DNA of 35,184 bases from an uncultured virus (IMG/VR IMGVR_UViG_3300025276_000002) (lineage: Duplodnaviria; Heunggongvirae; Uroviricota; Caudoviricetes), in IMG/VR virus record IMGVR_UViG_3300025276_000002. One strand, written 5' to 3'. Positions 1,441 to 13,544 of the stretch are shown here, one piece after another (position 1 is the stretch's first letter; every line of letters begins with the position of its first letter). Both the position numbers and the translations under genes were made by a program. The notes under the pieces were generated by a model that had not been told where the DNA came from, made no database searches, and saw only the letters and a list, made by a program, of their open reading frames with translations.

Positions 1441-1466
1441 TATGATTCCATCAAATTGTCCAATAT

Positions 1467-1562
1467 AAGCCACTCACAAGCACTCTAAGCAGCGATCGCC
1501 ATATAAGTAATACAATGGCAGCGGGTAGGTTTTAAGACGTCTTAGAATCACATAGAGGAACG
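1467..1562. other. ~96-bp two-armed element 1 (strong-gyrase-site-like)
   Basis: Left arm aagc.actcacaagcactctaagc, right arm cgtcttagaatcacatagagg, AT-rich core, ~10-11-bp phasing. Confidence 0.5.
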
Positions 1563-1603
1563 CATAGCATAGTTGCATAGCAAAGATGTTTATTACAGGC
1601 ATG

Positions 1604-1626
1604 AAAAAGCCCTCAATGGGAGGGCT
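1604..1626 (-). terminator. Rho-independent terminator of the leftward cassettes
   Basis: AGCCCTC-loop-GAGGGCT followed by TTTT on the minus strand. Confidence 0.8.
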
Positions 1627-1644
1627 GGTTACTTTTGATAGTGT

Positions 1645-1833
1645 CTAAAACTCTAACATTGTGCTCTGTCTTAGCTCTTCGCTCCCTAGTTTTTCAATAA
1701 ACCAAAAATATTCATTGCTCCATAAAGGATTAAGAGCAAACCAAGGTGCAGTATAGTAATCACCACCTAGTGTGCGACAATATATTTTAACATCCTGATT
1801 TGATTCTCTTAACTCGTCATAAAGAAGATACAT
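1645..1833 (-). CDS. hypothetical early protein (62 aa)
   Basis: ORF 1645..1848; GAGGAGG RBS favours ATG 1833. Confidence 0.65.
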   Translation of the reverse strand: MYLLYDELRESNQDVKIYCRTLGGDYYTAPWFALNPLWSNEYFWFIEKLGSEELRQSTMLEF

Positions 1834-1844
1834 AAGATCCCTCC

Positions 1845-2114
1845 TCAAAGTGTTTCTAGTTGTGAGCCAATGAACTTAATAACTTGGTTGAATTGTTTAG
1901 TGTCATCAATGTGCGCTGGTAAATCTTCGATCTTGTTGCCGTACACTTGAAACTTAAAAGTGAGTTGATCGCGGTCTGCATTGAACATGTATTCTATTAA
2001 GTTCTCCTCTTCACCTTGAACAAAGATTAATACATTACCATCTTCAATATTTACGTCTAATTGTAATCCGTGCTTTGCTGCAAATGTGTAGTTAGCTTTA
2101 GTAAGCTTTAGCAT
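1845..2114 (-). CDS. hypothetical early protein (89 aa)
   Basis: AGGA RBS and own promoter at 2159-2187. Confidence 0.8.
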   Translation of the reverse strand: MLKLTKANYTFAAKHGLQLDVNIEDGNVLIFVQGEEENLIEYMFNADRDQLTFKFQVYGNKIEDLPAHIDDTKQFNQVIKFIGSQLETL

Positions 2115-2118
2115 TGTG

Positions 2119-2218
2119 TAATTCCTAAATGGTTAAGCAGTATTGCTTCAATAAAGTGATCATCTCATATTCAGATAAGATGATCAACTCTTTTGAGTGA
2201 ATAAAGTTAAAATAGTTT
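2119..2218. repeat. ~100-bp leader/promoter repeat, copy 1 (copy 2 at 2730-2828)
   Basis: taattcctaaatggttaagc.gtattgcttc...gatcatctcatat....taagatgatcaa...aataaagttaaa is shared by both copies. Confidence 0.9.
2158..2187 (-). promoter_or_regulatory. sigma70-like promoter TTGATC-N17-GATGAT with GATC at both hexamers
   Basis: 17-bp spacer, TG extension, inverted repeat TGATCATCT...AGATGATCA. Confidence 0.7.
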
Positions 2219-2261
2219 GAACATTAAAAGCCACCTTTTACAGTGGCCATTACATTTAATA

Positions 2262-2465
2262 TCAATCAAATTCTAGATATAAACAAGATATATCAAGATT
2301 AAGGCTACCTTCAACCTCTTTTAGACTTTCTGTTAATTTCTCTTCAGTTAGATTGAAATTACGCCTTAAGCTATCCCTGAATTGTAAATCTAGTACCATA
2401 CTTAGATGCTTTTCGTGCTGTAAAAACAAGTATAACCCTAGATAGTGTCGCATTTTGTTATCCAT
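2262..2465 (-). CDS. hypothetical early protein (67 aa)
   Basis: AAGGA RBS; flanked by hairpins at 2227-2248 and 2498-2524. Confidence 0.65.
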   Translation of the reverse strand: MDNKMRHYLGLYLFLQHEKHLSMVLDLQFRDSLRRNFNLTEEKLTESLKEVEGSLNLDISCLYLEFD

Positions 2466-2543
2466 ACTACATCCTTAAAAATCTTTTAATTAAAAGTAAA
2501 AGCCCACTAGTCAGAGTGGGCTTTGTTGGTAATGGTTAGTTTA

Positions 2544-2723
2544 TTATAAAATACTATCAATTGATTTAAGTTCTAACGCTGCAATCGCATACTGTGTACC
2601 GTTTGGGTTACGTTCTTGCAGTGACCTAGTAGCGCTTGCTTTGATAGCTTGAATGCCTACTGTGTTAGATTCGTTGATGAACTTAGTAACACATGCGATT
2701 GTTTTAGCAGATAATGTTTTCAT
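2544..2723 (-). CDS. hypothetical early protein, 59 aa (MKTLSAKTIACVTKFINES...DSIL), not in the ORF track
   Basis: Translated by hand; follows leader repeat copy 2 with AGGA RBS. Confidence 0.75.
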   Translation of the reverse strand: MKTLSAKTIACVTKFINESNTVGIQAIKASATRSLQERNPNGTQYAIAALELKSIDSIL

Positions 2724-2729
2724 TGTCGT

Positions 2730-2828
2730 TAATTCCTAAATGGTTAAGCTGTATTGCTTCGATGTATTGATCATCTCATATCTAGCTAAGATGATCAATA
2801 CTTTTCGGTAAATAAAGTTAAATTAGTT
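2730..2828. repeat. ~100-bp leader/promoter repeat, copy 2
   Basis: Direct repeat of 2119-2218. Confidence 0.9.
2769..2798 (-). promoter_or_regulatory. sigma70-like promoter TTGATC-N17-GATGAT with GATC at both hexamers
   Basis: Same architecture as 2158-2187. Confidence 0.7.
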
Positions 2829-3023
2829 GTAATAGTTAGTTAACTTTAAAAAGTTATAATCATTGTTATCTACTAAGATTTTAGCCATTGCGACAGAATC
2901 ACGTTTTAACTTGTATGTAACCTCTTTACATGCTTTTAAATCTTTACCGTTAAAAATGTAAGTAGTATAAGATCCATCTTTATTTTTGTAAGTGTCCAGT
3001 TTAGCTGATTGATAAGTTTTCAT
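2823..3023 (-). CDS. hypothetical early protein (66 aa)
   Basis: AAGG RBS and own promoter at 3077-3105. Confidence 0.75.
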   Translation of the reverse strand: MKTYQSAKLDTYKNKDGSYTTYIFNGKDLKACKEVTYKLKRDSVAMAKILVDNNDYNFLKLTNYYN

Positions 3024-3075
3024 AATGTAAGCCTTAAAATGTAAGTTGTGAAACGTTGTACCGTTCCGATAGAGT

Positions 3076-3105
3076 GATCATCTCATACTTAGATAGGAAG
3101 ATCTA
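3076..3105 (-). promoter_or_regulatory. promoter TAGATC-N17-GATGAT, third copy of the GATC-containing promoter
   Basis: Shares gtgatcatctcata..agata with copies 1 and 2; GATC at 3076 and 3100. Confidence 0.65.
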
Positions 3106-3141
3106 CTATTAAATGCACTTTATTTTAAATTAATTTCTAAT

Positions 3142-3669
3142 TGATAATAGTTATCATCCACCAGCCTCATGCATATATTGATCAGCCTGTCAACATTTTA
3201 TTATTGCCCAGCGTACTATTGATTCAAAGTCAACATAGGCTAAAACGTCCTGTAAGTGATTCTAAGAGGCGATCGGTTTTACCTTAGTGTTAGTATTAAA
3301 ACAAAAAGATCTCTTCATCTGGTAGATCGGACAATAGTTGGCACACTGTTTGCTTAGTTAAATTAGTTATTGATAATCATTATCATCTAGATGCTTAGCA
3401 TGTTTAGCTTGTGAATTGTAGTAATAATTAAGCATATGTATATAACAAACCGTTCTATGTGATTAATTGAAAACGTGCTAGGCTTATCACTCGTTAGATC
3501 TACCATTTGCTAATTGGTATTGATAATTATTCTCAAGTAAGCAGATAAGACTTATTCTCATTTGCAATTGATGGCTATTCTCATTTGTAGTTGTTGAGAA
3601 GAGATCGCATTTGATATCAATTCTCATCTAGAGTTAATGATAACTATTTGCATTTGATATTGATTATCA
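3142..3669. promoter_or_regulatory. Fur-box array 1 (about 9 boxes of the 7-1-7 type)
   Basis: Perfect TGATAATcATTATCA at 3371-3385; 13/14 matches at 3142, 3521 and 3655; further degenerate boxes at 3546, 3569, 3595, 3612 and 3638. Confidence 0.8.
3241..3325. other. two-armed element 2 (strong-gyrase-site-like; right arm weak)
   Basis: taaaacgtcctgtaagtgattctaagaggcg; gtgattctaaga is the reverse complement of the right arm of element 1. Confidence 0.45.
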
Positions 3670-3700
3670 TTTAGAAAATAAAAGCAAGCAAGTTGAGAAT

Positions 3701-3763
3701 TGAAAACCGTTTGACTTTCCCAGTTTTACTATAGATGCTCTGGGGATTTTTCGATCTAGGGTG
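3701..3763 (+). repeat. conserved module-end motif, copy 1 (copy 2 at 13381-13447)
   Basis: TGAAAA-N4-TTGA-N7-AGTTTTACTA-N5-GCTCTGG..TTTT..CTAGGGTG, first ~45 nt in the same register in both copies. Confidence 0.8.
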
Positions 3764-3853
3764 GTCACGATCTAAGGCCAGTTGTAAAACAGCTTGTAAA
3801 ATCCATCAGCCAATGCTACCATTCAATAATCAATTAACTAATAAGGATCAACT

Positions 3854-4111
3854 ATGCTAGAATCAATCAAGAAGACGTTCAACAAACTAGGCTTTAAACA
3901 TCGTCATTATGAGCCACCAGCCAAGCCACGTTGGACTGTAAAGCCATTAGGCAAGGGTTATATCTATTATCAAGATAAGCCAGTCACAAAGCTTTCTGTG
4001 AGCTATTACAGATATACAGGAAATTCATTTAATAATAAGATGTTTAAAGAGATTGAGGCTGTAGCTAGAACGGGTCAAGTACTATTTAAAGGTTATGTAT
4101 CATTTAAGTAA
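3854..4111 (+). CDS. hypothetical protein (85 aa, basic)
   Basis: TAAGGA RBS upstream. Confidence 0.75.
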   Translation: MLESIKKTFNKLGFKHRHYEPPAKPRWTVKPLGKGYIYYQDKPVTKLSVSYYRYTGNSFNNKMFKEIEAVARTGQVLFKGYVSFK

Positions 4112-4160
4112 TTACATGGCCTTACAGCCCAGCACAACAACGATTAAGAGGTATTAGACA

Positions 4161-4250
4161 ATGAGTGGAACACTAGCAGGCGTATTAATATACATTGTAG
4201 CAATATTAGCTATATTACTATTAGTTAAAAATGGGAAGGGTGAACTATGA
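4161..4250 (+). CDS. small single-TM peptide, 29 aa (MSGTLAGVLIYIVAILAILLLVKNGKGEL)
   Basis: GAGG RBS; ATGA overlap with the next gene. Confidence 0.6.
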   Translation: MSGTLAGVLIYIVAILAILLLVKNGKGEL

Positions 4251-4471
4251 AGCGTAGAAAGGTAGAGACAGATCAATTATATGTCAGACTTACAAAGGAT
4301 GTTTCATATGCTAAAGATTTTACAAAAGATCGTTGGTATCCTGTGACTACATGTGACGGCATTTGTGGGCGCATAATTGATAACAGAGGTCTAACATACT
4401 TGTTAGATCTTGATATTATTAAATCCAACATAGTAACGTGGGAATATAAAACAATAAAGGTGACACCATGA
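4247..4471 (+). CDS. hypothetical protein (74 aa)
   Basis: ATGA-coupled on both sides. Confidence 0.7.
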   Translation: MKRRKVETDQLYVRLTKDVSYAKDFTKDRWYPVTTCDGICGRIIDNRGLTYLLDLDIIKSNIVTWEYKTIKVTP

Positions 4472-4557
4472 AGCGTAAGATCCAATTAACGTTAATATGG
4501 CTGGCTGTATTGAGCTTTCCAGCTATGATGATACTATGTGAACTATTAAGCAAGTAA
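4468..4557 (+). CDS. small hydrophobic peptide, 29 aa (MKRKIQLTLIWLAVLSFPAMMILCELLSK)
   Basis: ATGA overlap and AAGGTG RBS. Confidence 0.55.
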   Translation: MKRKIQLTLIWLAVLSFPAMMILCELLSK

Positions 4558-4564
4558 TATCTAA

Positions 4565-4839
4565 TAAGCCCTTGCATACATTGTTGAGGGCTGTTACACT
4601 TTAAGCACACCAACCGAGAACGGTTTAAAACTTCCATGTTACGTATCTGCTTACTAGAACGGACTAACTCAACACGGGGCGGCTGCCTATCTTATAAGCT
4701 GGAAAGGATCGGATCTCCCTGAAACCTTGTGGTCCTGAGACTTGCCCATTGCAGCGGTCTGTTATAATGGCCTTTGTGAATTAGGTTACCAAGTTCCCTA
4801 TCCAGTGATCTAATATTTATCCTTTGTCATTAATCTATG
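4565..4839 (-). ncRNA. candidate ~270-nt non-coding RNA
   Basis: Near-consensus promoter at 4846-4874, GC-richer body with no credible ORF, terminator-like hairpin AGCCCT...AGGGCT at about 4567-4592. Confidence 0.5.
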
Positions 4840-4845
4840 TGTTAC

Positions 4846-4874
4846 ATTGTATAGATCTCTGACTTCCTTGTCAA
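4846..4874 (-). promoter_or_regulatory. sigma70 promoter TTGACA-N17-TACAAT (GATC just upstream of -10)
   Basis: Direct reading of the minus strand. Confidence 0.85.
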
Positions 4875-4892
4875 TAGATTATTTTAAATTAA

Positions 4893-5069
4893 TTAGAATC
4901 TCCTTAATTGTTTAGCTATCACTTTAACTCGTCTTAGTCCTAGTCCTGATACATAACTTGCAGTTTTATAGCTACCACCATATGACAGGGCAAATATCGC
5001 TAGTCTTTGCATCTTACCTGTATTCCTGTTGTAGTTTTGTTGGCTTCTTCTTGGTTTTATAAAAATCAT
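4893..5069 (-). CDS. small basic protein with a probable HTH, 58 aa (…SYKTASYVSGLGLRRVKVIAKQLRRF), not in the ORF track
   Basis: AGGAG RBS; HTH-like pattern in the C-terminal half. Confidence 0.65.
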   Translation of the reverse strand: MIFIKPRRSQQNYNRNTGKMQRLAIFALSYGGSYKTASYVSGLGLRRVKVIAKQLRRF

Positions 5070-5081
5070 GTTGTAAACTCC

Positions 5082-5393
5082 TTAGTTATAATCTGTGTTT
5101 AACATCTCTGCTTCTATTTCCGCCCTGATACCTTGTGCATCTAGGCTGTCATAATATTCATTTTCTGCAAGCACTTCTTCAGGTGTTTGAGGCCAATCAT
5201 CTCTATCAATATAATCCATAAAGGCTATACTAGGATCTAGAAACTCCTCAATAAAATAAGCAACCCAATCAATACGTGACTTGATGCCCTCTTCATCTCC
5301 ATTCCTGACCAACTCTGGAATCTCTTCCATTGATTTCTTTATACCTAACATAACTCGGTAAGATATTGGTTTTAAAAATTCTCCATAGCTCAT
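5082..5393 (-). CDS. acidic hypothetical protein (103 aa)
   Basis: ATGA overlap with the upstream gene; GAGGG RBS. Confidence 0.75.
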   Translation of the reverse strand: MSYGEFLKPISYRVMLGIKKSMEEIPELVRNGDEEGIKSRIDWVAYFIEEFLDPSIAFMDYIDRDDWPQTPEEVLAENEYYDSLDAQGIRAEIEAEMLNTDYN

Positions 5394-5962
5394 ATTTTGC
5401 CCTCTCTTTTTAATTTGTCATATTCATACTGATCAGGATCATAAGTTTTGAGATTTAACTCTTCGCCTTTATGTCTCCACAAATGATCCTGCCAATGCTC
5501 TCTTATAAATTGTTCTGCCATAATCCTTAACTGTATAGTGGGGGATGATGAGAAAACAACAACGTTATTAACTTGCTTACTTACTCCAGATCTAGCCTCT
5601 ATAAGTATTGGATAAATTCCCGATAGTTGATCAGCCATCTTCTTTAAAGTCTTAGGTGTGCAATGCAAATTCTTTGTTAATGCTATCGGCTTTCTAACCT
5701 TAATAAGTGTAATAAGTAGAAATCTTAAACCCTGCAAGCTTTTGTACTGTGTCTTAGGATAACTAGCCTTATACTTCTTGATCATCTGGTCTGCTATTCC
5801 AACTCTTATTGAGTCCCATTCCCCGTATTCCATTGCGGTGTAGCTCGATTGCAGCCCCTGCTTACTGTTATATTTTAACCCTGATTTGGGACTCCTTTTG
5901 CCGTCAACAAGTATCATATCTTCCCCCCTTAGTTGCTGATCCGAGATTTCTAAGATTTCCAT
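5390..5962 (-). CDS. basic hypothetical protein, possibly a winged-helix DNA-binding protein
   Basis: 190 aa; PIALTKNLHCTPKTLKKMADQL resembles an HTH, followed by beta-strand-like segments. Confidence 0.6.
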   Translation of the reverse strand: MEILEISDQQLRGEDMILVDGKRSPKSGLKYNSKQGLQSSYTAMEYGEWDSIRVGIADQMIKKYKASYPKTQYKSLQGLRFLLITLIKVRKPIALTKNLHCTPKTLKKMADQLSGIYPILIEARSGVSKQVNNVVVFSSSPTIQLRIMAEQFIREHWQDHLWRHKGEELNLKTYDPDQYEYDKLKREGKI

Positions 5963-6021
5963 GCATAGAACTATAATACTATACCATAGTAATCTTAATA
6001 TTTAATATACATACCATACGA

Positions 6022-6050
6022 AGTATACATACAGATATTGCATACGTCAA
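6022..6050 (-). promoter_or_regulatory. sigma70 promoter TTGACG-N17-TATACT
   Basis: Directly upstream of the 5962-to-4893 operon. Confidence 0.7.
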
Positions 6051-6196
6051 CACTTAATAGATCTATAGTAATGGTAATCTTAATAGTAATGGTAATAGCT
6101 ATCATTTGTATGCTTGTTTGTATGCCATATTATATAGTTGATAATGTCAACCTTACTTGAGGTTTGGAAGGGGATTCTCCCCCTCCCAACTCCCTT

Positions 6197-6321
6197 GATC
6201 TAGTCTATGTATTGATCTGGATAGTGCGATCTATGGCAGGTAGTATAGTATGCAGATGATCTATGTATGTAAGTTGTGTATGGTGATCTGTACAGTATGC
6301 GTATAATGATCTGTATGATCT
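6197..6321 (+). repeat. cluster of seven co-oriented GATCT sites in a GT-skewed non-coding tract
   Basis: GATC at 6197, 6214, 6228, 6258, 6285, 6308 and 6317, plus 6060 and 6539. Confidence 0.8.
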
Positions 6322-6420
6322 GTTGTATGTATTGTATTATCTATATTTTAGATTGATAAGTAAGTATTGATTGATTAATTAGATATGTATATTAGTCTAT
6401 GATTATCTAGTGTATCATAT

Positions 6421-6518
6421 AAGCTCTTCAATAAGCCTGTAAGCTGTTTAATTATCTACCCAATAGGGTTACTTAGGTTAATAGGTTTAAATCGGTTACA
6501 GGCTGGCTATGGGGCTTG
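6421..6518. other. two-armed element 3 (strong-gyrase-site-like)
   Basis: aagc...agcctgtaagc ... gttacaggct...gcttg; the arms agcctgtaa and ttacaggct are exact inverted repeats. Confidence 0.55.
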
Positions 6519-6616
6519 TATGTTTGATTGTGTTAGTTGATCTGGGTTGTATTGTCTGTGTAACTATGTTGCTATATTAAATAAGTAATAGACTGTTGTT
6601 GTCTATTACTCTTTTA

Positions 6617-6874
6617 TTAGTCTAGTCTGTTTAATCTGTAAAGACATATATCTGTCTCACAGTATGAATTGCCTTCTAGGTACTGAACTACTAATTTAAA
6701 GCCTTGGCTTATTTCTACCAGTCTATACCCTGTCACACCTTCTTCTATTATGTGTTGATAATAATCTTTGAACCAAGATGATTCTATTAAGGATGTCATA
6801 CTATGGTGATCTGTGTATTTTATGTATAGATCTGTGTAATCATCTTTGTATTTTCCTGCACTTATTATGTACAT
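6617..6874 (-). CDS. hypothetical early protein (85 aa)
   Basis: GAGGG RBS. Confidence 0.75.
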   Translation of the reverse strand: MYIISAGKYKDDYTDLYIKYTDHHSMTSLIESSWFKDYYQHIIEEGVTGYRLVEISQGFKLVVQYLEGNSYCETDICLYRLNRLD

Positions 6875-6940
6875 TTATTTGCCCTCTTGTTAGGTTAGAT
6901 ATATGACAGACCTTTTATGATCTGTCATTGTGTTATTAGT

Positions 6941-7138
6941 TTAACTTAATAAATATTTAACTAAATGATCTTTTACTTGGTTAATCTTCCATTGTTGACC
7001 ATCAAAATAGACCTTGTAAGTGCCGTGGGTGGTTTTTAGTATTCTAAATGAGACACCACAATGTGAAATCATATTAACTGATTTTGGATTACGTCTAGTT
7101 GCACGTTTGCATAATTTTAAGATTGTTGATTCTTTCAT
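6941..7138 (-). CDS. hypothetical early protein (65 aa, basic)
   Basis: AAGGTG RBS. Confidence 0.7.
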   Translation of the reverse strand: MKESTILKLCKRATRRNPKSVNMISHCGVSFRILKTTHGTYKVYFDGQQWKINQVKDHLVKYLLS

Positions 7139-7202
7139 ATTATCACCTTGTGATTAGTTGGTTATAATGGTCTGCTCGTTAACACTCACAGATCATTTTT
7201 GT

Positions 7203-7580
7203 TTAGTATTCTTTTAATTTATCTTCAAGCTCTTTGATTCTGGCAAGTTCACCAGTTTTTGCATTATAGCGTAAGCCTCTGCTGATATCAAGTACAAAGC
7301 GGGGTGTGTATATTGCTGCAAAGATGATTACAACACCTATAAGCGCTTCGAATAGTACACCATCTGAACGTAAAAGACTAGAAACAGCGATAATAAAAAA
7401 CGTCACTAGTGCTAAAAGAAAACCACCTAATAAATAACTAGTCCAGCAGCTTACACCAGCCCTGTTAATCAGTATAAACTTATCTGATCTGGTCCAATGT
7501 CGCATAAGTCCGATCAATACATACCCTGACAGTATGACTGTTACTAGTCCAATTACTAAGTTAAAAGCTAATTCATTCAT
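7203..7580 (-). CDS. membrane protein with 3 predicted TM helices
   Basis: Three hydrophobic stretches; AGGG RBS; own promoter. Confidence 0.8.
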   Translation of the reverse strand: MNELAFNLVIGLVTVILSGYVLIGLMRHWTRSDKFILINRAGVSCWTSYLLGGFLLALVTFFIIAVSSLLRSDGVLFEALIGVVIIFAAIYTPRFVLDISRGLRYNAKTGELARIKELEDKLKEY

Positions 7581-7642
7581 AATTATATTTCCCCTATTTT
7601 TATTTAATCTGCTAATACGTTATTGCTTAGCCAGTAACCGCT

Positions 7643-7671
7643 ATATTATAGATCACTGACTAAGGTGTCAA
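7643..7671 (-). promoter_or_regulatory. sigma70 promoter TTGACA-N17-TAATAT (GATC just upstream of -10)
   Basis: Direct reading of the minus strand. Confidence 0.7.
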
Positions 7672-7700
7672 CACTCTATATCAATTAATTTGCATTTAGT

Positions 7701-8111
7701 TTATAAAATTGTAATACCGTTTAAATGATCTATTTCATGTTGTACACAATAGCTTAGTAATCCTTTGCAATTCTTTTTGATTGGTTGCCAATTACGATCA
7801 AAACCTTCAACCGTGATCATCTCATCCCTTTTTAATGTGGCCTGTCTTGAAGGGAATGATAGACAGCCCTCCTTTGAGATCTTTAGCTTGCCACCCTTAC
7901 GAGTGATCACGGGGTTTATAATTTCAGTTCTAAAGCCTTGCACGTTTACAACTATTACTCGGATAGTTAATCCAACTTGGTTCGCAGCAAGTCCGATCCC
8001 TTTTGACGTATCCATTAGAGAAAACATACCATTTATGATCTGACTAATATCTGTCCCTTTCTCTACCTCAGTAGATGTTTGTTTCAGTGTATCATGTGTT
8101 AATTGTAGCAT
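7701..8111 (-). CDS. def: peptide deformylase, short phage type
   Basis: All three PDF motifs are present: GIGLAANQVG, EGCLS and HEIDH. Confidence 0.97.
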   Translation of the reverse strand: MLQLTHDTLKQTSTEVEKGTDISQIINGMFSLMDTSKGIGLAANQVGLTIRVIVVNVQGFRTEIINPVITRKGGKLKISKEGCLSFPSRQATLKRDEMITVEGFDRNWQPIKKNCKGLLSYCVQHEIDHLNGITIL

Positions 8112-8116
8112 TTTTT

Positions 8117-8200
8117 AAGCCTCTCTAAGCGTTTATAATCTATTACCTATACAATCGCCCTAGTAAAAATATTTAAATCAATCCTAGGACTACTACAGGT
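8117..8200. other. two-armed element 4 (strong-gyrase-site-like)
   Basis: aagcctctctaagcgttt ... cctaggactactacagg. Confidence 0.45.
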
Positions 8201-8205
8201 ACATA

Positions 8206-8382
8206 TTATCCAATTAACCAGCTAATTCTGAATACTCGTAACCAGTCTAAAACTATTAATATAACCAAGCTTACAGGGATAAATGCGAACATGCAAGTTT
8301 TGATTACATTTTCAACCTTGTGCATAGTTGATTGAGTTTTCATGTACTGTTCAGTACGTTTTGAGTAAAATTGTTTAGTCAT
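8206..8382 (-). CDS. small protein with a C-terminal TM helix, 58 aa (MTKQFYSKRTEQY...SWLIG), not in the ORF track
   Basis: Translated by hand; fills the cassette between def and 8466. Confidence 0.6.
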   Translation of the reverse strand: MTKQFYSKRTEQYMKTQSTMHKVENVIKTCMFAFIPVSLVILIVLDWLRVFRISWLIG

Positions 8383-8465
8383 TATCTCGGCCTATTATTT
8401 GAATATTATCTCTTAAGGAATAACCCGCATATTACAGGCTATTAATTTAAAAGTAAAGCTTTTAT

Positions 8466-8738
8466 TTAAAGACTCTTTTCAAAGTACCAACCAACTAAAT
8501 TGTCCAGTCTGTACACTGAGCTGTCAAAGTTCATGGCATCATTAATGAGGTAGTTGTTAATACCCTTCAGCTTGATATAAAAACTAATAAATTTACCTGT
8601 ATTAGTCATATAAATTTTATAACCTTGGTTTTTACCATTTACATGAAAATGTGCCTTTTTACCTGTCCAAATGTTAGACCCTGTTATTCTCATATCGGGT
8701 GCCGCCTCATAAGTCTGTACTATAATTTCTGTTTTCAT
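8466..8738 (-). CDS. hypothetical early protein (90 aa)
   Basis: AGGTG RBS; immediately downstream of the tRNA. Confidence 0.75.
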   Translation of the reverse strand: MKTEIIVQTYEAAPDMRITGSNIWTGKKAHFHVNGKNQGYKIYMTNTGKFISFYIKLKGINNYLINDAMNFDSSVYRLDNLVGWYFEKSL

Positions 8739-8761
8739 AATATCACCTGTTTATTGAAAGT

Positions 8762-8838
8762 TGGTACACTGTATAGGATTCGAACCTATAACCTAGACGG
8801 TAGAAACATCTTGCTCTATCCAGTTGAGCTAACAGCGC
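8762..8838 (-). tRNA. tRNA-Arg(UCU) with encoded CCA
   Basis: GCGCTGT TA GCTC AACTGGATA GAGC A AGATG TTTCTAC CGTCT AGGTT ATAGG TTCGAAT CCTAT ACAGTGT A CCA forms a full cloverleaf. Confidence 0.95.
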
Positions 8839-8909
8839 TTTGTAAATTGCTTTGTTAAGATGTAATCATTGTTACATAACTACATCAAGAAAACAACTAT
8901 TAATTTTAA

Positions 8910-9113
8910 TTATTCTTCACTTTCTAACAACTTGATCTCTTCATCCAATTCACGGATCATCTTTTCACATTCTACAATCTTACCAACTAGGTAGCCTTGC
9001 CCGTGTTCGCATGTGTTATCCTCTAACTTTTGTTCAAGTCGTGTTAACTCTTCAAACTCATTTGATAACGCTTGGCGTGCTTCTGTTAAGTTAATCATAA
9101 TTTTAAACCTCAT
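8910..9113 (-). CDS. small acidic coiled-coil protein (start may be ATG 9098)
   Basis: Heptad pattern; own promoter at 9129-9159. Confidence 0.75.
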   Translation of the reverse strand: MRFKIMINLTEARQALSNEFEELTRLEQKLEDNTCEHGQGYLVGKIVECEKMIRELDEEIKLLESEE

Positions 9114-9128
9114 TGTTTAACTTGTTTG

Positions 9129-9161
9129 TAGTGTAGCGGCTAACGTTGGGAGCTGTCAACC
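9129..9161 (-). promoter_or_regulatory. promoter TTGACA-N18-TACACT; 30-bp repeat with 11617-11646
   Basis: tgtagcgg(c/t)taacgttgggagctgtcaacc, one mismatch between copies. Confidence 0.8.
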
Positions 9162-9172
9162 TCTTTTAGTGT

Positions 9173-9328
9173 TTAATTTAATAAATAAGCGTTTAAGTAT
9201 TGAATACTAACTATATTTTGAATGCCTACTTTATCAGCCTTAATTTTAACATTCTCTTCATTTTCGGCACCTATTACACATTGCACGGCTTTAAAATTAT
9301 CCATGTAAATAACCATGTAAGCTTTCAT
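9173..9328 (-). CDS. hypothetical early protein, 51 aa (MKAYMVIYMDNFKAVQCVIGAENEE...)
   Basis: GAGG RBS; upstream leader resembles 11942-12003. Confidence 0.7.
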   Translation of the reverse strand: MKAYMVIYMDNFKAVQCVIGAENEENVKIKADKVGIQNIVSIQYLNAYLLN

Positions 9329-9450
9329 AATTTAACCTCAATTTGTTTACGTGGCTAACACCTTGCTAGCCAGTGATTAAATAGTAATGCAGCTTGATTT
9401 GTATTGCAACCTTTTATTATAAATAATTGCAATTAATTTTAATACCTTTT

Positions 9451-9547
9451 TAAACGTCCTGTAATAGACTGTGATTAATTTAAATCGTTATCTATGCAAT
9501 TGCACTAATGAATAATTAAAGCCGTTTTGGTGCGCTGTGACAGCTTG
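9451..9547. other. two-armed element 5 (strong-gyrase-site-like), overlapping the 3' end of ORF 9505-9786
   Basis: taaacgtcctgtaatagactgtga ... gcgctgtgacagcttg. Confidence 0.5.
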
Positions 9548-9786
9548 TGATTACCTATCACCTTTACAACTTTAGCGTAAATGGTAGCAGGGTTTAAGTT
9601 TATATTATTTACATCGATGATCAATGATCCGTGATATTCCAAAACTGCATCAATACCATCAAAGTTTGTATAAAGTTCTGTCTTGATAGTTTCAAGTAAG
9701 CTATGTTCTACAATGTAATCATACATATTTTCAGTAAATGTAATAGTGTATTCTTTGCCTGTTAGTTTAATATCATTTGTTGCCAT
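9505..9786 (-). CDS. hypothetical early protein (93 aa)
   Basis: AAGGAG RBS. Confidence 0.75.
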   Translation of the reverse strand: MATNDIKLTGKEYTITFTENMYDYIVEHSLLETIKTELYTNFDGIDAVLEYHGSLIIDVNNINLNPATIYAKVVKVIGNHKLSQRTKTALIIH

Positions 9787-9958
9787 CTCTTAAACTCCTT
9801 AAATATTGCATTTGTTGCCACTCTGGATCATCATCCATTTGATCATTAATAACGCTTGACAATGTTTTGGTGATGCTTGGATCATTCTGTCGCTGTTGCA
9901 AGTGTACCAAATAATTCAGATGATCCTTACATACTTTTAATGCAGTTTGTTTACTCAT
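9773..9958 (-). CDS. hypothetical early protein (61 aa)
   Basis: Short overlap with the next gene. Confidence 0.65.
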   Translation of the reverse strand: MSKQTALKVCKDHLNYLVHLQQRQNDPSITKTLSSVINDQMDDDPEWQQMQYLRSLRDGNK

Positions 9959-10022
9959 AGATTGCGGCCTGTGCTAGTGAAAATAAAAGGCGGATAGTTC
10001 ACCGCCACAAAAGGGGGGTTAT

Positions 10023-10457
10023 TTATTCTTCATCACAATCAAAATCTGTCTGATCTAAGTGTTCGCTTAATTGTTCTTGTACGTCTGCATACATTGCATA
10101 AAAAGCTAATGCTTGATGTAAACCGTTTAAACCATCATTTTTAATAATATCGGCTAAACTGTCACCGCAAAGGATGCCATGATCAATAGCATAATCTGAA
10201 TTGGTAGAGTGTTTAAGTATATCTAAATGATAATGATAATAAATTGCGTATTGACTACCGTCCACTATTTCATGTAATAGGCTATCATTTGCCAGATCTT
10301 CTATTTCATCCCTATCAAAACTGATTTGATCACAATCTAGAGCTTCATTAATTGCATAGATAACGCTATCAGTTAAAGATAACACCGCTTGATGGTAGTT
10401 AAAATCAGTGTTTAAGTTTTCAACGTTTTCATAAGATACAGATTTTAAAGTTTTCAT
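10023..10457 (-). CDS. highly acidic Ocr (T7 gp0.3)-like putative DNA mimic / anti-restriction protein
   Basis: LHEIVDGSQYAIYYHYHLDIL recalls the Ocr segment IHMAADNAVPHYYADIF; D/E-rich with an acidic tail; early location. Confidence 0.6.
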   Translation of the reverse strand: MKTLKSVSYENVENLNTDFNYHQAVLSLTDSVIYAINEALDCDQISFDRDEIEDLANDSLLHEIVDGSQYAIYYHYHLDILKHSTNSDYAIDHGILCGDSLADIIKNDGLNGLHQALAFYAMYADVQEQLSEHLDQTDFDCDEE

Positions 10458-10570
10458 AATATTCACTCTTTTTAAATGGTGGCATAATTGCCTGTTAATA
10501 ATAAAAACCGCTTTAGCGGCCTTGTTAAGATGTGCTCAGTATATAACTAAACACACCAACAAAGCAAGCT

Positions 10571-10969
10571 TTAATTTAAGTTATTCTCTAACTCTTCTAA
10601 CTCTTCCGTAAGTCCAGCTATTTCTTTTTCTAACTCTTCGACCTCAGATTCTAGATCAATATATTCGTCTAAATTCATAATATCAAAACTATCAGCAAAA
10701 TCATTTAAACCGCAACGAAACATAACAGGATCATGCTTTTGCATTAAGTCCGATGCATATTCACCACATAGAAATTCACCACATAGAAATTCTATATCGT
10801 CTAGATGATCCTCGTAATGTCCATTTAGCATTGCCTCATAATCACTTGTAATAACATCTTCGAAGTGTGACAGAGGATCATTAGTCATAGATTTGATTGC
10901 AGCCTTGGCGTTAATTAGGTGATCATTGTTAATGATGATAGTTTTGCGAATTTCTGATAATGTAGTCAT
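10571..10969 (-). CDS. highly acidic early protein with a C-terminal coiled coil
   Basis: YxxxLDD...GEYASxLxxxDPxxFRCGxNDFxDS pattern; D/E-rich; GAG RBS before ATG 10969. Confidence 0.75.
   Translation of the reverse strand: MTTLSEIRKTIIINNDHLINAKAAIKSMTNDPLSHFEDVITSDYEAMLNGHYEDHLDDIEFLCGEFLCGEYASDLMQKHDPVMFRCGLNDFADSFDIMNLDEYIDLESEVEELEKEIAGLTEELEELENNLN
10759..10792. repeat. 15-bp in-frame tandem duplication (EFLCG x2)
   Basis: attcaccacatagaa attcaccacatagaa attc. Confidence 0.95.
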
Positions 10970-11070
10970 AATAATATCTCTTTTAAAATGTAATTTGCCG
11001 TTAGTGGCGTTTTGTTTCAATAAGGTAATTCTACTTTATACAGTTTACGCTGTCAACACTTTATTTTGAA

Positions 11071-11229
11071 TTAATCGTTTTCTTTTTCAAACTCTACAAA
11101 TTGATCTGCCCGTTTATTCGCCCTATCTGCTTGCATTGCTAGATCTTGGCCCTTGCGTGTACGTTTGCGATCAATTCGTACCGTTTTAGCTGTGTTTTTT
11201 GTTCGTTTCATTGGTGATACTCTACCCAT
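11071..11229 (-). CDS. small basic protein (52 aa, MGRVSPMKRTK...)
   Basis: AAGGA RBS before ATG 11229; the upstream part of the track ORF is a hairpin. Confidence 0.65.
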   Translation of the reverse strand: MGRVSPMKRTKNTAKTVRIDRKRTRKGQDLAMQADRANKRADQFVEFEKEND

Positions 11230-11305
11230 TTCAATCCATCCTTTTAAATCGTTATTGTGTAGCCCTGTGAGCTGTTTAAACGTCACAAGGCTGTCATTGT
11301 ATTAG

Positions 11306-11572
11306 TTAAGCGATTACTGCCACTCTAGCCGCTATAGAACGCTTGTGAGTCACTACTATAGCCGAGCCGTGAACATTAAAAGCTAGTGATTGAACTTTAG
11401 CAGGTTTTGAAGGAGCTTGCAATGTGTTTGTTTTAATAACCTTGTGAGCTAACCAAGATCCGCAACCATCTTTCCCGCTTGTAGACTTGAAAAGCTTTTT
11501 ACCTGTGCATAGGTTAACACGTTTAACAAAAGTTCGCATCTGTTGGCGGGTAGAGAATTTTAATGTATTCAT
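11306..11572 (-). CDS. basic hypothetical early protein (88 aa)
   Basis: AAGG RBS; own promoter. Confidence 0.75.
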   Translation of the reverse strand: MNTLKFSTRQQMRTFVKRVNLCTGKKLFKSTSGKDGCGSWLAHKVIKTNTLQAPSKPAKVQSLAFNVHGSAIVVTHKRSIAARVAVIA

Positions 11573-11613
11573 AATGTAATACCTTTTAATAATATAATTT
11601 TTGATTGAGTGTT

Positions 11614-11646
11614 AATTGTAGCGGTTAACGTTGGGAGCTGTCAACC
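11614..11646 (-). promoter_or_regulatory. promoter TTGACA-N18-TACAAT
   Basis: Second copy of the 9132-9161 repeat. Confidence 0.8.
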
Positions 11647-11659
11647 GCTTTTTTGGTGT

Positions 11660-11920
11660 TTATTTTAAAGATATAATCTTTAATTCCCAGTTACCTGTCC
11701 CGTGTAAAGATCTGATTAAGTCAGGGCGATCCCTCAGTAGCTGGCCATTACCGAGCTTTTCTGATAAAATTTTAAATTTCATATCATCGGCTATAGACTT
11801 AAAGTCTGCACTGTCAGGTACTATTTTATAGTTAACTATACTCCCGTTAGGATCAATCAAGCAGACTTTACAAGAAAAACCACCAACCACAACGCCGTTA
11901 ACATCTTCGAAAGTTTGCAT
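11660..11920 (-). CDS. hypothetical early protein (86 aa)
   Basis: TAAGG RBS. Confidence 0.75.
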   Translation of the reverse strand: MQTFEDVNGVVVGGFSCKVCLIDPNGSIVNYKIVPDSADFKSIADDMKFKILSEKLGNGQLLRDRPDLIRSLHGTGNWELKIISLK

Positions 11921-12004
11921 AATAAAACCTTATTCTTAAAAGTGGCTAACCCGTTGCCAGCCAGTTATTAAATTTTAATCCAAGTAGATTATAATTGCAA
12001 GTGT

Positions 12005-12136
12005 TTATTTAAAACTCTTTTCAAACTCTTGTAAAGTTAACCCGTTAAACACATGTTCAACTATTTCTGATTGTGTTGCAACTTCAAAAACCCAACCATC
12101 ACGGCATATATGCCAAACGTTGTCTATCTTTTTCAT
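12005..12136 (-). CDS. hypothetical early protein, 43 aa (MKKIDNVWHICRDGWVFEVATQSE...)
   Basis: AGGGG RBS; own leader hairpin. Confidence 0.65.
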   Translation of the reverse strand: MKKIDNVWHICRDGWVFEVATQSEIVEHVFNGLTLQEFEKSFK

Positions 12137-12214
12137 AATAAAACCCCTTTAAATAGTGGCTCCCTGTGAGCCGATGAATACTAATATACAGTGTTATAAT
12201 TTAAACGCAAGCTT

Positions 12215-12439
12215 TTATTTAATTAAATGTGAAATTAATTTATCCTGTTTGATAACATTTGCTAAATTATCACATACATGCGTAACCATGTGGCCCTGTG
12301 GCGAACGTGAACAGGTGTAAAAGTAACAGTGATCATAGTTTTGGTAATGTTCACTGTTTGCACCGTTGTAGCATTGTGCGAGGTTAAACCTGTCTATAAT
12401 ATAAGACACCTGATCATAAGTTGGATTAATCTGTTTCAT
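12215..12439 (-). CDS. hypothetical early protein (74 aa)
   Basis: AAGG RBS before ATG 12439. Confidence 0.7.
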   Translation of the reverse strand: MKQINPTYDQVSYIIDRFNLAQCYNGANSEHYQNYDHCYFYTCSRSPQGHMVTHVCDNLANVIKQDKLISHLIK

Positions 12440-12550
12440 AATATAAAGCCTTTGTTTAAGTTGTTTCAATACGTATAAAGGTACACTATTTTTAAACTAT
12501 TGAAAACAATTTTATTAAAGAATTATTTTTAATAATATTGGTGATCTTTG

Positions 12551-12580
12551 TTGACAGGGTAAAACGTTTGTTTATATAAT
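12551..12580 (+). promoter_or_regulatory. promoter TTGACA-N18-TATAAT (divergent from the leftward cassettes)
   Basis: Consensus hexamers. Confidence 0.85.
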
Positions 12581-12623
12581 AGCGGTACACAAACAGAGAA
12601 TATTATTTAAAAGGGTAAAGATT

Positions 12624-12791
12624 ATGTTTATTATGAAAAGTAGTTTTAAGTATGCATCACCTGTAGCGGGTTATAATGATGTAAAGCTTTTAGAATCGAT
12701 TGGTGTAGAAGGTATTAAAGTTTTACCTAATGCAGAGGCAGTTTTAACAAGGTTGGTTAATAGTGATTATTTACCTACAGGTCAATATTAA
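12624..12791 (+). CDS. hypothetical protein, 55 aa (MFIMKSSFKYASPVAG...PTGQY)
   Basis: AAGGG RBS; consensus promoter upstream; hairpin downstream. Confidence 0.7.
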   Translation: MFIMKSSFKYASPVAGYNDVKLLESIGVEGIKVLPNAEAVLTRLVNSDYLPTGQY

Positions 12792-12842
12792 ATTAATCAA
12801 CAAAAGCCCTTGCAATTTAAAGTGTAAGGGCTTATAGTTCGT

Positions 12843-12933
12843 AACAGATAACAGGTTAGAAGGCGGCTCGGCAGATAACGCAAACTTAAGTTTAAAGCTC
12901 TTGGAATCAATAGAGAGTGGGCGATATTCTGTT
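12843..12933 (+). ncRNA. candidate ~90-nt structured RNA A
   Basis: Promoter TTGCAA-N17-TATAGT (12810-12838); 5' AACAGA pairs with 3' TCTGTT; internal hairpins; no ORF. Confidence 0.45.
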
Positions 12934-12960
12934 AATGTAAATGATTATCAATAACCTAAT

Positions 12961-13055
12961 CAAGCGTCCTGTAACCGATCCTGAGCCTTTTAATAATAAT
13001 CTAATGCAATGACCTATCTATCTAACTAAGGCCCGTTACAGCCGCTTACAGCTTG
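12961..13055. other. two-armed element 6 (strong-gyrase-site-like)
   Basis: caagcgtcctgtaaccgatcctgagc ... gcccgttacagccgcttacagcttg. Confidence 0.55.
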
Positions 13056-13133
13056 TTATATTTGATTTAAATTAATTACAAATAAATTGTATAAACCGCT
13101 TGCACTATTCGACAAGATCTATATACTTGGTTA

Positions 13134-13240
13134 TATCAGCTTAAAGCTGAAAGTCTCCCAAACCACACGGGCAGCGCTTCCCTTTAACGTCCAAATGATT
13201 TAATCATTTTCAGGAGGAATGAAGGGTGGGCGATCGCCAG
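13134..13240 (+). ncRNA. candidate ~100-nt structured RNA B
   Basis: Promoter TTGCAC-N16-TATACT (13100-13127); hairpin TCAGC-TTAAA-GCTGA; stem CGCTTCCCTT/AAGGGTGGGCG. Confidence 0.4.
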
Positions 13241-13380
13241 TAAACAAGATTAATTCTCATTTACAAAGCTAAACTATTCTCGTTTACAAAGTTAAATCTA
13301 AATGATAGCTAATCGCATTAGCATTCCAGCGTAATGAGAATGATTCTCATTTAAGTCAGAATTTTACTGATTCTGGAAAC

Positions 13381-13447
13381 TGAAAATGAATTGAGATTTT
13401 GAGTTTTACTAAGATCGCTCTGGCAAATTTTTATGTACCCTAGGGTG
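13381..13447 (+). repeat. conserved module-end motif, copy 2
   Basis: Aligns with 3701-3763 without gaps over the first ~30 nt and shares GCTCTGG and CTAGGGTG. Confidence 0.8.
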
Positions 13448-13513: not shown

Positions 13514-13544
13514 GGATGTGAAATTAATTATTGAGGAGAGTATT

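Follow-up and report, generated by a model that had tools for sequence, protein, structure and literature searches.

The early region of this marine phage appears to carry a composite, gene-free control region in two diverged copies, and these may be Fur-loaded boundary modules of the T5 type, that is, putative barriers or insulators; judging from the sequence, we give this joint reading a probability of roughly 0.4. The window (the whole stretch of DNA analysed, 35,184 nt) belongs to a 75,238-nt contig whose record is 78% complete. The phage carrying these Fur-like sites is virulent. Its capsid is closest to that of Shewanella phage KASIA (vB_SspS_KASIA; 73% amino-acid identity), on which ground membership of the T5-like phages was rejected; KASIA and this phage have a four-block gene layout in common, and both encode a single-subunit RNA polymerase.

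Composition of the two module ends

One module end spans 3024-3853 and the other 12850-13511; they are diverged copies of each other that remain collinear, both gene-free and both between diverging genes. In a permissive local alignment of 3540-3763 with 13239-13447, 142 of the 202 ungapped columns are identical, a score reached by none of 300 Markov shuffles; under stringent scoring a 30-nt core alone survives (26/29 identical), with a score that the best of 300 shuffles exceeds. Both ends run in the same order: a 24-30-nt element (at 3243 in end 1 and 12962 in end 2), then the GGCGATCG palindrome (at 3268 in end 1, 13229 in end 2), then Fur-like boxes, and last a tail motif, whose core is at 3722 in end 1 and at 13402 in end 2. 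Rightward ORFs come next, at 3854 and 13512, respectively; the first-pass annotation, which had described the two ends as built alike, was thus right. The first tail copy occupies 3683-3763 (plus strand, core 3722-3743), and the second 13360-13447 (plus strand, core 13402-13423), which is kept in the relative L014 and partly in KASIA at 3525-3690. At end 2 the palindrome GGCGATCGCC (13229-13238) adjoins the left edge of the Fur-like array. The first rightward ORF past region 1 (3854-4111, plus strand; 85 aa, no family) is 96% identical in L014, and the rightward nucleotide-metabolism block past region 2 has a sigma-70-like promoter at 13485-13513 (plus strand, 11/12 match, kept in L014), which starts about 135 nt past the last Fur core.

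Fur cores were scored in the 15-nt 7-1-7 form with at most 3 mismatches, and also against the 19-nt E. coli consensus. The 75,238-nt contig holds 28 such cores, 8 of them in 1.1 kb, where the mean over Markov shuffles is 0.41 and none of 2000 reaches 8. All four cores with at most 1 mismatch in the contig fall at 3142-3669, and five of the seven positions within 4 mismatches of the 19-nt consensus lie inside the two control regions. Region 1 includes a core with 1 mismatch at 3142-3156, a perfect 15-nt core at 3371-3385 (2 mismatches to the 19-nt consensus) and a tandem array at 3516-3680 (cores at 3521 and 3655 with 1 mismatch, at 3612 and 3638 with 3). Region 2 includes a core with 2 mismatches (12936-12950) and a second array at 13239-13352, which matches repeat arrays of T5-like phages and contains a perfect 19-nt palindrome at 13333-13351; this array is weaker than the first, its best cores having 2 mismatches. 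The Fur-box clusters noticed at first reading are therefore far above chance, and the Fur reading holds, as a reading of predicted sites. Fur boxes are rich in A and T, and similar sites might also serve a phage protein.

As a comparison system we used bacterial Fur operators and operator clusters, as described in the available text of Chen et al. 2007 (PMC2189734). Like these, the window has one perfect core and three 1-mismatch cores, and its 19-nt palindrome is a sequence that adjoins iron genes in bacteria; the difference is that the phage sites are mostly without promoter overlap. The exact palindrome matched at least 121 stretches of bacterial genomes, of which 80 were fetched, and 72 of the 80 sites lie outside any ORF of 150 aa or more. 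Iron/metal-uptake or fur genes adjoin it in at least 28 of the 80 loci, a raw count (109 ORFs scanned; TonB-receptor plug, FUR, FeoA/B, FTR1, ferritin, HemS, ZnuA, Zip, Peripla_BP_2 and Iron_transport were counted); an FbpA-type binding protein flanks it in 8 further loci. No iron-related gene was recognised downstream of the phage's own Fur-like sites. The 75-kb record encodes no Fur-family protein, so that the binder would be the host's.

Relatives differ in their Fur cores, and they do not keep the module order. In L014 the order is Fur boxes, element A, gene; the boxes stay ahead of its homolog of gene 3854, with a different sequence at that place. J2-1 has no core at the site corresponding to region 2, and its cluster sits at the opposite extremity of the leftward block. 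A 1-mismatch core of J2-1 (L010 9796) directly adjoins a leftward ORF at its start. H101 and KASIA are nearly core-free, with one core of at most 2 mismatches in 25 kb and none in the first 22 kb, respectively. The module is thus not essential to the lineage, given that L014 is without module 1 and that KASIA, H101 and J2-1 are short of Fur cores.

Element family, cassettes and other gene-free stretches

The element profile was built from 48 copies outside the window. Element B (3238-3310, plus strand) consists of a 30-nt core and a tail ending in an A-rich run, with GGCGATCG at 3268-3275; its profile match (3238-3269) is the only significant one in the window (E 4e-7), and the element aligns with T5, Kenya-K36, UTK0009 and J2-1 and belongs to the same family as T5 inverted repeat B'. 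The element A block (1467-1586, minus strand; 78% identical to L014; GGCGATCG at 1493) contains a degenerate inverted copy of the B core at 1537-1562, with a profile E of 0.5 (1537-1558, minus strand) and a 20-nt inverted match of 90% to 3248-3267. Element D (12962-12994, plus strand) is a degenerate copy of the B core with E 1.2 (12965-12994), and its L014 homolog is significant (E 4.6e-5). An extra degenerate copy inside the leftward block (9452-9475, plus strand) is not significant (E 6.9). Elements A, D and the copy at 9452 are tied to B by direct similarity only; the shared 10-mer occurs exactly three times in 75 kb, always on the plus strand. Element C (6421-6516) gave no profile hit and was rejected as a family member. 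Hence the earlier description of an element of about 96 bp with two arms, opening and closing each module, was not reproduced as one defined unit: of the two opening elements A stands, weakly, and C falls. Nothing tested points to gyrase, whose sites these elements had been taken to resemble.

Inverted element pairs bracket variable small-gene blocks in T5 (6184-6209 and 9261-9303), in H101 (L009 7456-7482 and 8775-8808) and in the window, the orientation being minus then plus in the window and plus then minus in T5 and H101. Fur cores occur on both sides of the element in T5-like loci (in most at about -365 to -191 and at +166), in J2-1 (-205, -77, +191 and +337) and in the window (about -100 and +130). 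In 42 of 73 element loci no Fur core is nearby, so that the element can occur apart from the array.

Module 1 behaves as a discrete unit, as had been supposed: the close relative L014 lacks exactly 1587-3786, between conserved flanks, so that all of module 1 is missing and the gap ends just past the first tail copy. Its five small leftward ORFs (1645-3023, minus strand), one of them with a PHROG family of unknown function, end at a two-way terminator hairpin (1608-1626) that has a homologous hairpin in KASIA. The suggested leftward cassettes with a promoter per gene are borne out by repeats at 2119-2217 (minus strand), 2730-2828 and 3058-3110, upstream of small leftward ORFs; the first two (99 nt) are 86% alike, and the cassette has a sigma-70-like promoter within a palindrome of 12-nt arms holding two GATC sites. 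Spacers of Pseudoalteromonas phage H101 match the cassettes at 86-87% identity, with different genes at that place. The cassettes recall the PeSL (promoter-early stem-loop) cassettes of T4-type phages, which Arbiol et al. are said to have described in 2010, in that repeated spacers with promoters separate the small early ORFs and vary less from phage to phage than the ORFs do; they differ in phage group, in sequence and in the placement of the promoter inside a palindrome with two GATC sites.

The leftward early block of module 2 (6617-12469, minus strand) includes a peptide deformylase (7701-8111) and a tRNA-Arg (8762-8838). Divergent early promoters lie in 12436-12835 (12/12 sigma-70 match at 12551-12580). 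This stretch, which also holds a small plus-strand ORF (12624-12791) and a terminator, is conserved in J2-1 and H101. The genes switch strand, and the GC skew changes, near 12.5 kb. The proteins of the two modules are indeed unrelated, as each of 15 window proteins hit only itself within the window (tblastn, E<=1e-3).

Two other gene-free stretches may mark an end of the genome or of a terminal repeat. First, the C-rich stretch 1162-1466, after the terminator (1140-1161) of a rightward block, is a candidate physical left end; KASIA 339-401 (340-400 nt from its mapped left end) aligns with 1569-1631. Second, 5963-6616, with a C-rich hairpin (6165-6190), seven GATC sites (6197-6317) and element C, is a candidate right end of a terminal repeat, with weak likeness to KASIA 6895-6945; the KASIA repeat has 6,912 bp, according to the available text of PMC8541194. 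The proposed Dam/SeqA platform was not borne out, GATC occurring at 4.6 per kb overall with the 6197-6317 group as the only local cluster.

Likeness to the T5 injection-stop region

T5-like phages carry the same predicted building blocks in the repeat region that holds the injection-stop signal (in T5, Repeat Region 3 of the left terminal repeat, record AY587007). As a query, 13242-13355 matches 22 T5-like records in a repeat region that carries no annotation and lies close to where the terminal repeat ends on the right; the match is inside the annotated terminal repeat in Kenya-K36 and in a gene-free gap in UTK0009. The window Fur array matches T5 direct repeat C (9468-9637), which holds 4 of the 10 Fur-consensus hits (at most 5 mismatches) in 13 kb, matched by none of 1000 shuffles; element B aligns with inverted repeat B' and with the unannotated T5 copy at 9261-9303. 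The likeness to T5 raised earlier is accordingly stronger than the first-pass annotation could know, because sequence homology underlies it.

In both phages a gene-free region borders temporal gene blocks, tandem Fur-like repeats (direct repeat C copies 1-4 in T5) stand beside a GC-rich palindrome, and elements of the inverted-repeat-B' family are found in inverted copies around a variable small-gene block. By position, the GGCGATCGCC palindrome would correspond to T5 palindrome J, the bearer of nick 1. The differences are also clear. The window has two such regions, each flanked by diverging genes, whereas the genes around the T5 region converge; unlike T5, the phage has no DnaA boxes in its first 15 kb (T5 has them in pairs) and no LexA-type palindrome (CTGT, eight A/T, ACAG) in the window, and a search for relatives of A1 and A2 in the 78%-complete record, J2-1 and H101 gave none. 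By-eye inspection of the window revealed nothing resembling T5 direct repeat D. The terminator that follows element A is also present in KASIA, as is a portion of the tail motif, but KASIA has no significant match to the 30-nt element in its first 22 kb (best profile hit E 10).

Possible roles of the control regions

We propose the following. Iron-loaded host Fur would coat the arrays and, together with a binder of the 30-nt element, would form a bulky protein-DNA block at the border between the early cassettes and the next rightward block. This block would oppose any DNA-tracking traffic, for example transcription running on from the strong early promoters, or DNA on its way into the cell. 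Module 1 would be an optional cassette block between inverted element copies, gained or lost by relatives.

The next candidate, which we consider doubtful, is ordinary iron-responsive control, the arrays being Fur operators that serve the rightward operons, or small RNAs that lack annotation, so that expression of these phage genes would be limited to iron-starved cells. Both arrays are upstream of rightward genes, L014 keeps Fur boxes before its 3854-gene homolog despite the differing sequence, and the J2-1 core abuts an ORF start. Core 3142 covers part of the -35 hexamer in a weak promoter match (3151-3179) that would read rightward into element B, so that ordinary repression could act there; the number of promoter-like matches in 1-15000 does not exceed chance (80 against 68.1 +/- 9.7 expected). 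Considering that about 125-135 nt separate the last Fur core from the strong promoter 13485 and from the candidate promoters of gene 3854, a barrier or insulator is likelier than a classic on-promoter repressor. In T5, Kenya-K36 and UTK0009, moreover, the arrays are between gene ends and not before starts, and Rfam finds no small RNA at the arrays.

Staged entry, in which host proteins on both regions halt transfer at about 3.7 kb and 13.4 kb, seems improbable, even with the homology to the T5 region. According to the available text of 10.1101/866236, first-step DNA of T5 is calculated to shear at 9618, within the injection-stop repeat region; in the T5 record this position belongs to direct repeat C copy 4. 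A second first-step band of about 5846 bp, cited in the same preprint, is near the other repeat unit. KASIA, the closest characterised relative, has long, non-permuted terminal repeats, but its authors, in the available text of PMC8541194, doubt a T5-like transfer because the A1-like gene is outside the repeat and A2 is absent. Here, A1 and A2 were not found, region 2 is about 7 kb beyond the candidate repeat end, one or both arrays are missing in relatives, and the role of the repeats in T5 itself is only putative.

Two further explanations are very unlikely. A replicating genome with at least 8 cores per copy might titrate Fur and turn on host iron uptake; in the laboratory, multicopy Fur boxes do relieve the repression of Fur-controlled genes (the Fur titration assay), and a decoy needs no promoter placement, consistent with the array position in T5-like phages, but it leaves the conserved array-element linkage with cores on both sides, and the placement at block borders, unexplained, and relatives manage without arrays. 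Sites for a phage protein (origin iterons or operators) merely resembling Fur boxes would suit the ATTCTCATTT-type units at 23-nt spacing (3554, 3577; 13253, 13276), the Rha/Ant-type DNA-binding protein encoded at 424-1122 and the switch near 12.5 kb, but the best sites are exact matches to boxes adjoining bacterial iron genes, and the arrays are common to unrelated phage lineages with different proteins.

Taken together, the earlier observation is partly confirmed and its interpretation partly supported, and Fur-loaded boundary modules are our best reading. As the same blocks occur where T5 pauses DNA injection, a second group of phages may offer a way to test this long-standing puzzle.

Composite regions at the two module ends

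The gene layout described in the first-pass annotation, with leftward and rightward blocks separated by gene-free stretches, is borne out. Rightward genes end at 1122 and are followed by a terminator and by gene-free DNA (1162-1466); small leftward ORFs (1645-3023, minus strand), gene-free DNA (3024-3853) and rightward ORFs from 3854 (plus strand) come next. A leftward block (6617-12469, minus strand) is then followed by gene-free DNA up to 13511, after which a rightward nucleotide-metabolism block begins on the plus strand. Promoter-per-gene cassettes are also confirmed, as repeated promoter-bearing spacers between small ORFs. These spacers are 86-87% identical to those of Pseudoalteromonas phage H101, while the adjoining ORFs differ between the two phages; a repeated promoter spacer kept across phages with different ORFs is a PeSL-like trait. 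The early promoter cassettes at 2157-2186, 2767-2797 and 3074-3104 each lie within a palindrome whose 12-nt arms span both promoter hexamers and two GATC sites, an arrangement that resembles the operator of a dimeric protein regulating early genes.

The regions that close module 1 (about 1467-3763) and module 2 (about 6421-13447), namely region 1 (3024-3853) and region 2 (12850-13511), are paralogous composite modules made of T5-type parts. Both contain, in identical order, a 24-30-nt element, the palindrome GGCGATCG, Fur-like boxes and a tail motif that ends the module. The palindrome occurs at just three places in 75 kb, each within 30-nt-type elements. In a permissive local alignment of 3540-3763 with 13239-13447, 142 of 202 ungapped columns are identical, and the score of 35 (20.9 +/- 3.8 in shuffles) was reached by none of 300 shuffles; stringent scoring leaves the 30-nt core alone, which is not beyond chance by itself. 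Thus the end motif of about 65 bp that had been claimed is indeed common to both module ends, but it sits within a longer paralogous stretch of weak conservation and is not a separate unit. It does not read as a sigma-70, sigma-54 or phage-polymerase promoter, since the hexamer spacing is wrong by eye and only two copies exist in 75 kb; looser scans gave nothing consistent upstream of late genes. Nor is it an inverted copy of an element arm, as the local-alignment score was reached by 517-1234 of 2000 shuffles.

Each module had also been said to open and close with a two-armed element. The opening element A (1467-1586) is a degenerate inverted copy of the closing element B (3238-3310), but the opening element C (6421-6516) was unrelated in every test run. 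A strict two-module grammar is not supported, and neither are the gyrase and Dam/SeqA readings; the two-armed element belongs instead to the family of T5 inverted repeat B'. The repeats at 6426, 11254 and 12153 were rejected as copies of the 30-nt element, and the 12153 repeat is read, together with similar spacer hairpins, as 5'-leader stem-loops of leftward genes. Module 1 has a history of its own. A close mosaic relative of the window phage, a 91-kb ocean-metagenome contig (L014), lacks exactly 1587-3786, and its Fur-like boxes and element A directly precede a homolog of the 3854 gene; this exact absence argues that module 1 is a real, dispensable evolutionary unit.

Putative Fur boxes and T5-type parts

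For the scan of the rebuilt 75-kb contig we used the 15-nt 7-1-7 Fur core. With up to three mismatches there are 28 cores, eight of them within 1.1 kb, where shuffled sequence gives a mean of 0.41 and none of 2000 shuffles reaches eight. All four cores with at most one mismatch fall at 3142-3669, including a perfect one at 3371, and with a 19-nt consensus (up to four mismatches) five of seven positions lie within the two regions. As an outside check, the perfect palindrome 13333-13351, with any base allowed at its centre, was looked for in bacterial genomes. At least 121 stretches matched, of which 80 were fetched; 72 of the 80 sites lie outside ORFs of at least 150 aa. When the 109 flanking ORFs were scanned against Pfam, at least 28 of the 80 loci (a raw count) had an iron/metal-type protein or Fur as neighbour (TonB-receptor plug, Fur, FeoA/B, FTR1, ferritin, HemS, ZnuA, Zip, siderophore-type binding protein or Fe2+ transport protein), and eight further loci had an FbpA-type binding protein. 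These neighbourhoods fit a Fur-family operator. The Fur-box reading is therefore upheld by above-chance cores and by bacterial use beside iron genes, and the boxes of both regions are predicted sites of Fur-operator quality. A phage-encoded Fur was looked for, and the 75-kb record encodes no Fur-family protein.

The comparison with T5 is likewise supported, by a tandem array of the direct-repeat-C type and by a pair of inverted-repeat-B'-type elements that enclose a variable set of genes. Region 2, used as the query of a sensitive DNA search, matched 22 records of Salmonella and Escherichia phages (102-115 kb), all within 13242-13355, and this segment also aligns directly with the arrays of T5 and of the T5-like phages Kenya-K36 and UTK0009. 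The match in Kenya-K36 falls within the annotated terminal repeat, close to the inner end of that repeat, and the one in UTK0009 falls in a gene-free gap past the pre-early genes. Copies 1-4 of T5 direct repeat C with palindromes E-J (9468-9637) form the same kind of array as that of the window, holding four of the ten consensus matches (up to five mismatches) in the first 13 kb of T5, which none of 1000 shuffles equals. T5 nick 1 lies in the GC-rich palindrome J, adjoining this Fur-like array. A preprint (10.1101/866236) gives 9618 as the calculated shear point of T5 first-step DNA, a position that the T5 record puts in copy 4 of direct repeat C. Close to the left end of its genome, T5 also has a perfect 15-nt Fur core within the dmp gene (233-247 of the T5 record, L145).

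Element B can be aligned with three T5 sequences, namely inverted repeat B' (6184-6209), the stretch 5285-5310 and a copy at 9261-9303 that carries no annotation, as well as with its counterparts in Kenya-K36, UTK0009 and Pseudoalteromonas phage J2-1. A profile made solely from outside copies finds B at E 4e-7 and A as a weak copy at E 0.5, and a 20-nt inverted match supports A. In T5, the inverted copies at 6184-6209 and 9261-9303 bracket the poorly conserved ORF011-017 block, and in H101 an inverted pair brackets three small ORFs. A and B bracket the cassette block in the window, with the orientation of the pair reversed relative to T5 and H101.

When virus contigs were scanned with a 17-base pattern of the element that leaves some positions free, 73 stretches matched, in 59 contigs (57 distinct contexts) of 4 kb to 371 kb, three of them of 355-371 kb. 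The free positions are clearly non-random, so the stretches are relatives and not chance matches. The element lies near both ends in 11 contigs, as would be expected of terminal repeats. At least two Fur cores occur within 1.5 kb of the element in 26 of the 73 loci and none in 42; judged by flanking sequence and the size of the contigs, the 26 look like the T5-like group plus J2-1. In 55 of the 57 contexts the element is not inside a long ORF, and it is independent of the orientation of its neighbours (19 minus/minus, 17 plus/plus, 10 convergent, 6 divergent, 5 others). As a structured RNA it was rejected, with 0 pairs from RNAalifold on 42 sequences, and no Rfam family matches the window or any of 10 element loci; in single-sequence folds its A-run often pairs with a downstream T-run, in shifting registers. 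At one locus (L171) it follows three clustered tRNA genes of its own strand at a distance of 14 nt. The 30-nt element, represented in T5 by inverted repeat B', is a widespread, undescribed intergenic phage element.

Other T5 features differ. The three TTWTNCACA matches to the DnaA box in the window all lie outside its first 15 kb, unlike the paired DnaA boxes in the 131-bp inverted repeats (IRC/IRD) of T5. The window also contains no LexA-type palindrome (CTGT, eight A/T, ACAG). In T5 there are two perfect copies, at 6137 and 9332 (palindrome D), which lie inside inverted repeats D and D' (L145 6137-6152 and 9332-9347) beside DnaA boxes and the Fur array. Such palindromes are also found at loci L143 (3693 and 5416) and L144 (6951), and within 60 nt upstream of the element in 18 of the 57 contexts. 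Fur cores are almost absent in Shewanella phage KASIA and in H101, and the J2-1 cluster is located elsewhere.

The phage, its relatives and its genome ends

The window comes from a 75,237-nt linear virus record (G001) with an estimated completeness of 78%. The record continues leftward by another 665 nt of rightward coding DNA, so the left edge of the window is not a genome end. It encodes an 880-aa single-subunit RNA polymerase, a primase/helicase, a Dda-type helicase, the large terminase subunit, capsid and tape-measure proteins, thymidylate synthase, dihydrofolate reductase, two homing endonucleases, lysis genes and a tail protein with a T5 pb4-spike domain. The capsid protein shares 73% identity with its KASIA counterpart, with no T5-like phage among the matches listed. 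Among named phages, the DNA search gave only J2-1 and H101 as relatives, and these over short stretches. Virus contigs scanned for exact DNA patterns gave four chance matches in one scan and none in another, and the proteins of 13693-14220 and 5390-5962 led to no relatives.

Several genes stand out. The RNA polymerase gene (G001:C1:6266-8908, outside the window) heads the late-gene strand of a siphovirus, as in KASIA; a promoter consensus for this polymerase was sought and not found. Part of tRNA-Arg(TCT) (8762-8838, minus strand), at 8771-8835, is 98.5% identical to the tRNA-Arg of the otherwise unrelated Vibrio cholerae phages JA-1 and VCO139. In the early block, a peptide deformylase (7701-8111, minus strand; Pfam E 5.5e-40) is 100% identical in L014. 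The thymidylate synthase gene (20758-21597) is flanked by homing endonuclease genes, an HNH gene (17345-18178) about 2.6 kb upstream and a GIY-YIG gene (21594-22313) directly after it.

According to its published description, KASIA has a direct terminal repeat of 6,912 bp, which is non-permuted and was mapped by PhageTerm, its own RNA polymerase, the four-block gene layout also seen in the window phage, and an A1-like gene outside the repeat with A2 absent (PMC8541194). KASIA 339-401, near the mapped left end, aligns with window 1569-1631, and the DNA at its right repeat boundary resembles 6150-6200 by eye. On this analogy a terminal repeat may tentatively be placed at about 1.2-6.2 kb, in which case region 1 would lie inside it and region 2 outside. 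In the assembled contigs of the public runs, depth is 19.7 left of 6325 and 6-14.6 right of it, with contig breaks at 6325-6395, compatible with a repeat boundary or, equally, with strain mixtures; only covered parts serve as evidence here. C-rich, ORF-free stretches with short repeated words follow the last rightward gene at 1162-1466 (0.3 kb) and in J2-1 (L010 7456-9400, about 1.9 kb), and may mark genome ends. KASIA (L146) carries a CCCTCCCC-type run at 1-30, just inside its left end, and at 6913-6935, just beyond the right repeat boundary; such a run could mark where DNA is cut when the terminal repeat is made.

A putative Fur checkpoint

In the favoured reading, iron-bound host Fur would coat the arrays. 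The main promoters start 125-135 nt past the last Fur core (an 11/12 match at 13485, conserved in L014, and candidate promoters of gene 3854), and the core at 3142 is the sole one that overlaps a promoter match, a weak one. The arrays of T5-like phages are placed between gene ends. This placement and the distance to the main promoters incline us towards a barrier or insulator where blocks meet, in preference to plain repression. A perfect early promoter (12551), the small ORF that it serves and a terminator come immediately before region 2, where a barrier could keep read-through out of the next block.

A pause in DNA entry at these regions, as also proposed in the first-pass annotation, would agree with their homology to T5 and with the terminal repeat of KASIA. 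The proposal is weakened, however, because region 2 would lie outside the repeat and because A1 and A2 are missing: no relatives were found in G001 (78% complete), J2-1 or H101, an empty search that is little proof. The 526-aa ORF beside the gene-free region of J2-1, considered as an A1 relative, matches hypothetical proteins of T4-like phages instead. Overall, the observation is confirmed in part, and its interpretation is supported in part, for the Fur reading and the T5 analogy.

T5 stops injecting its DNA after 8% of the genome, and the mechanism has been a puzzle for more than 50 years; we know of no host factor established for it. The available part of the T5 preprint proposes DnaA and mentions neither Fur nor iron (10.1101/866236). 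In the open literature searched, we found no paper tying Fur to the injection-stop region. The Fur array and the 30-nt element of T5 recur in a marine phage whose capsid is different, which has an RNA polymerase of its own and in which neither DnaA nor LexA boxes were found; this suggests that the array and the element make up the region's conserved core. We propose, with a probability of only about 15%, that long-terminal-repeat siphoviruses, from enteric T5 to the marine KASIA/J2-1 type, share a portable checkpoint consisting of a host Fur operator array and a hairpin-prone 30-nt element, where host iron status would set the hand-over from the early DNA that enters first to the remaining genome; with two checkpoints, the window phage would process its genome in three stages. 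The shared array and element may make the old T5 injection-stop puzzle approachable via Fur and iron.
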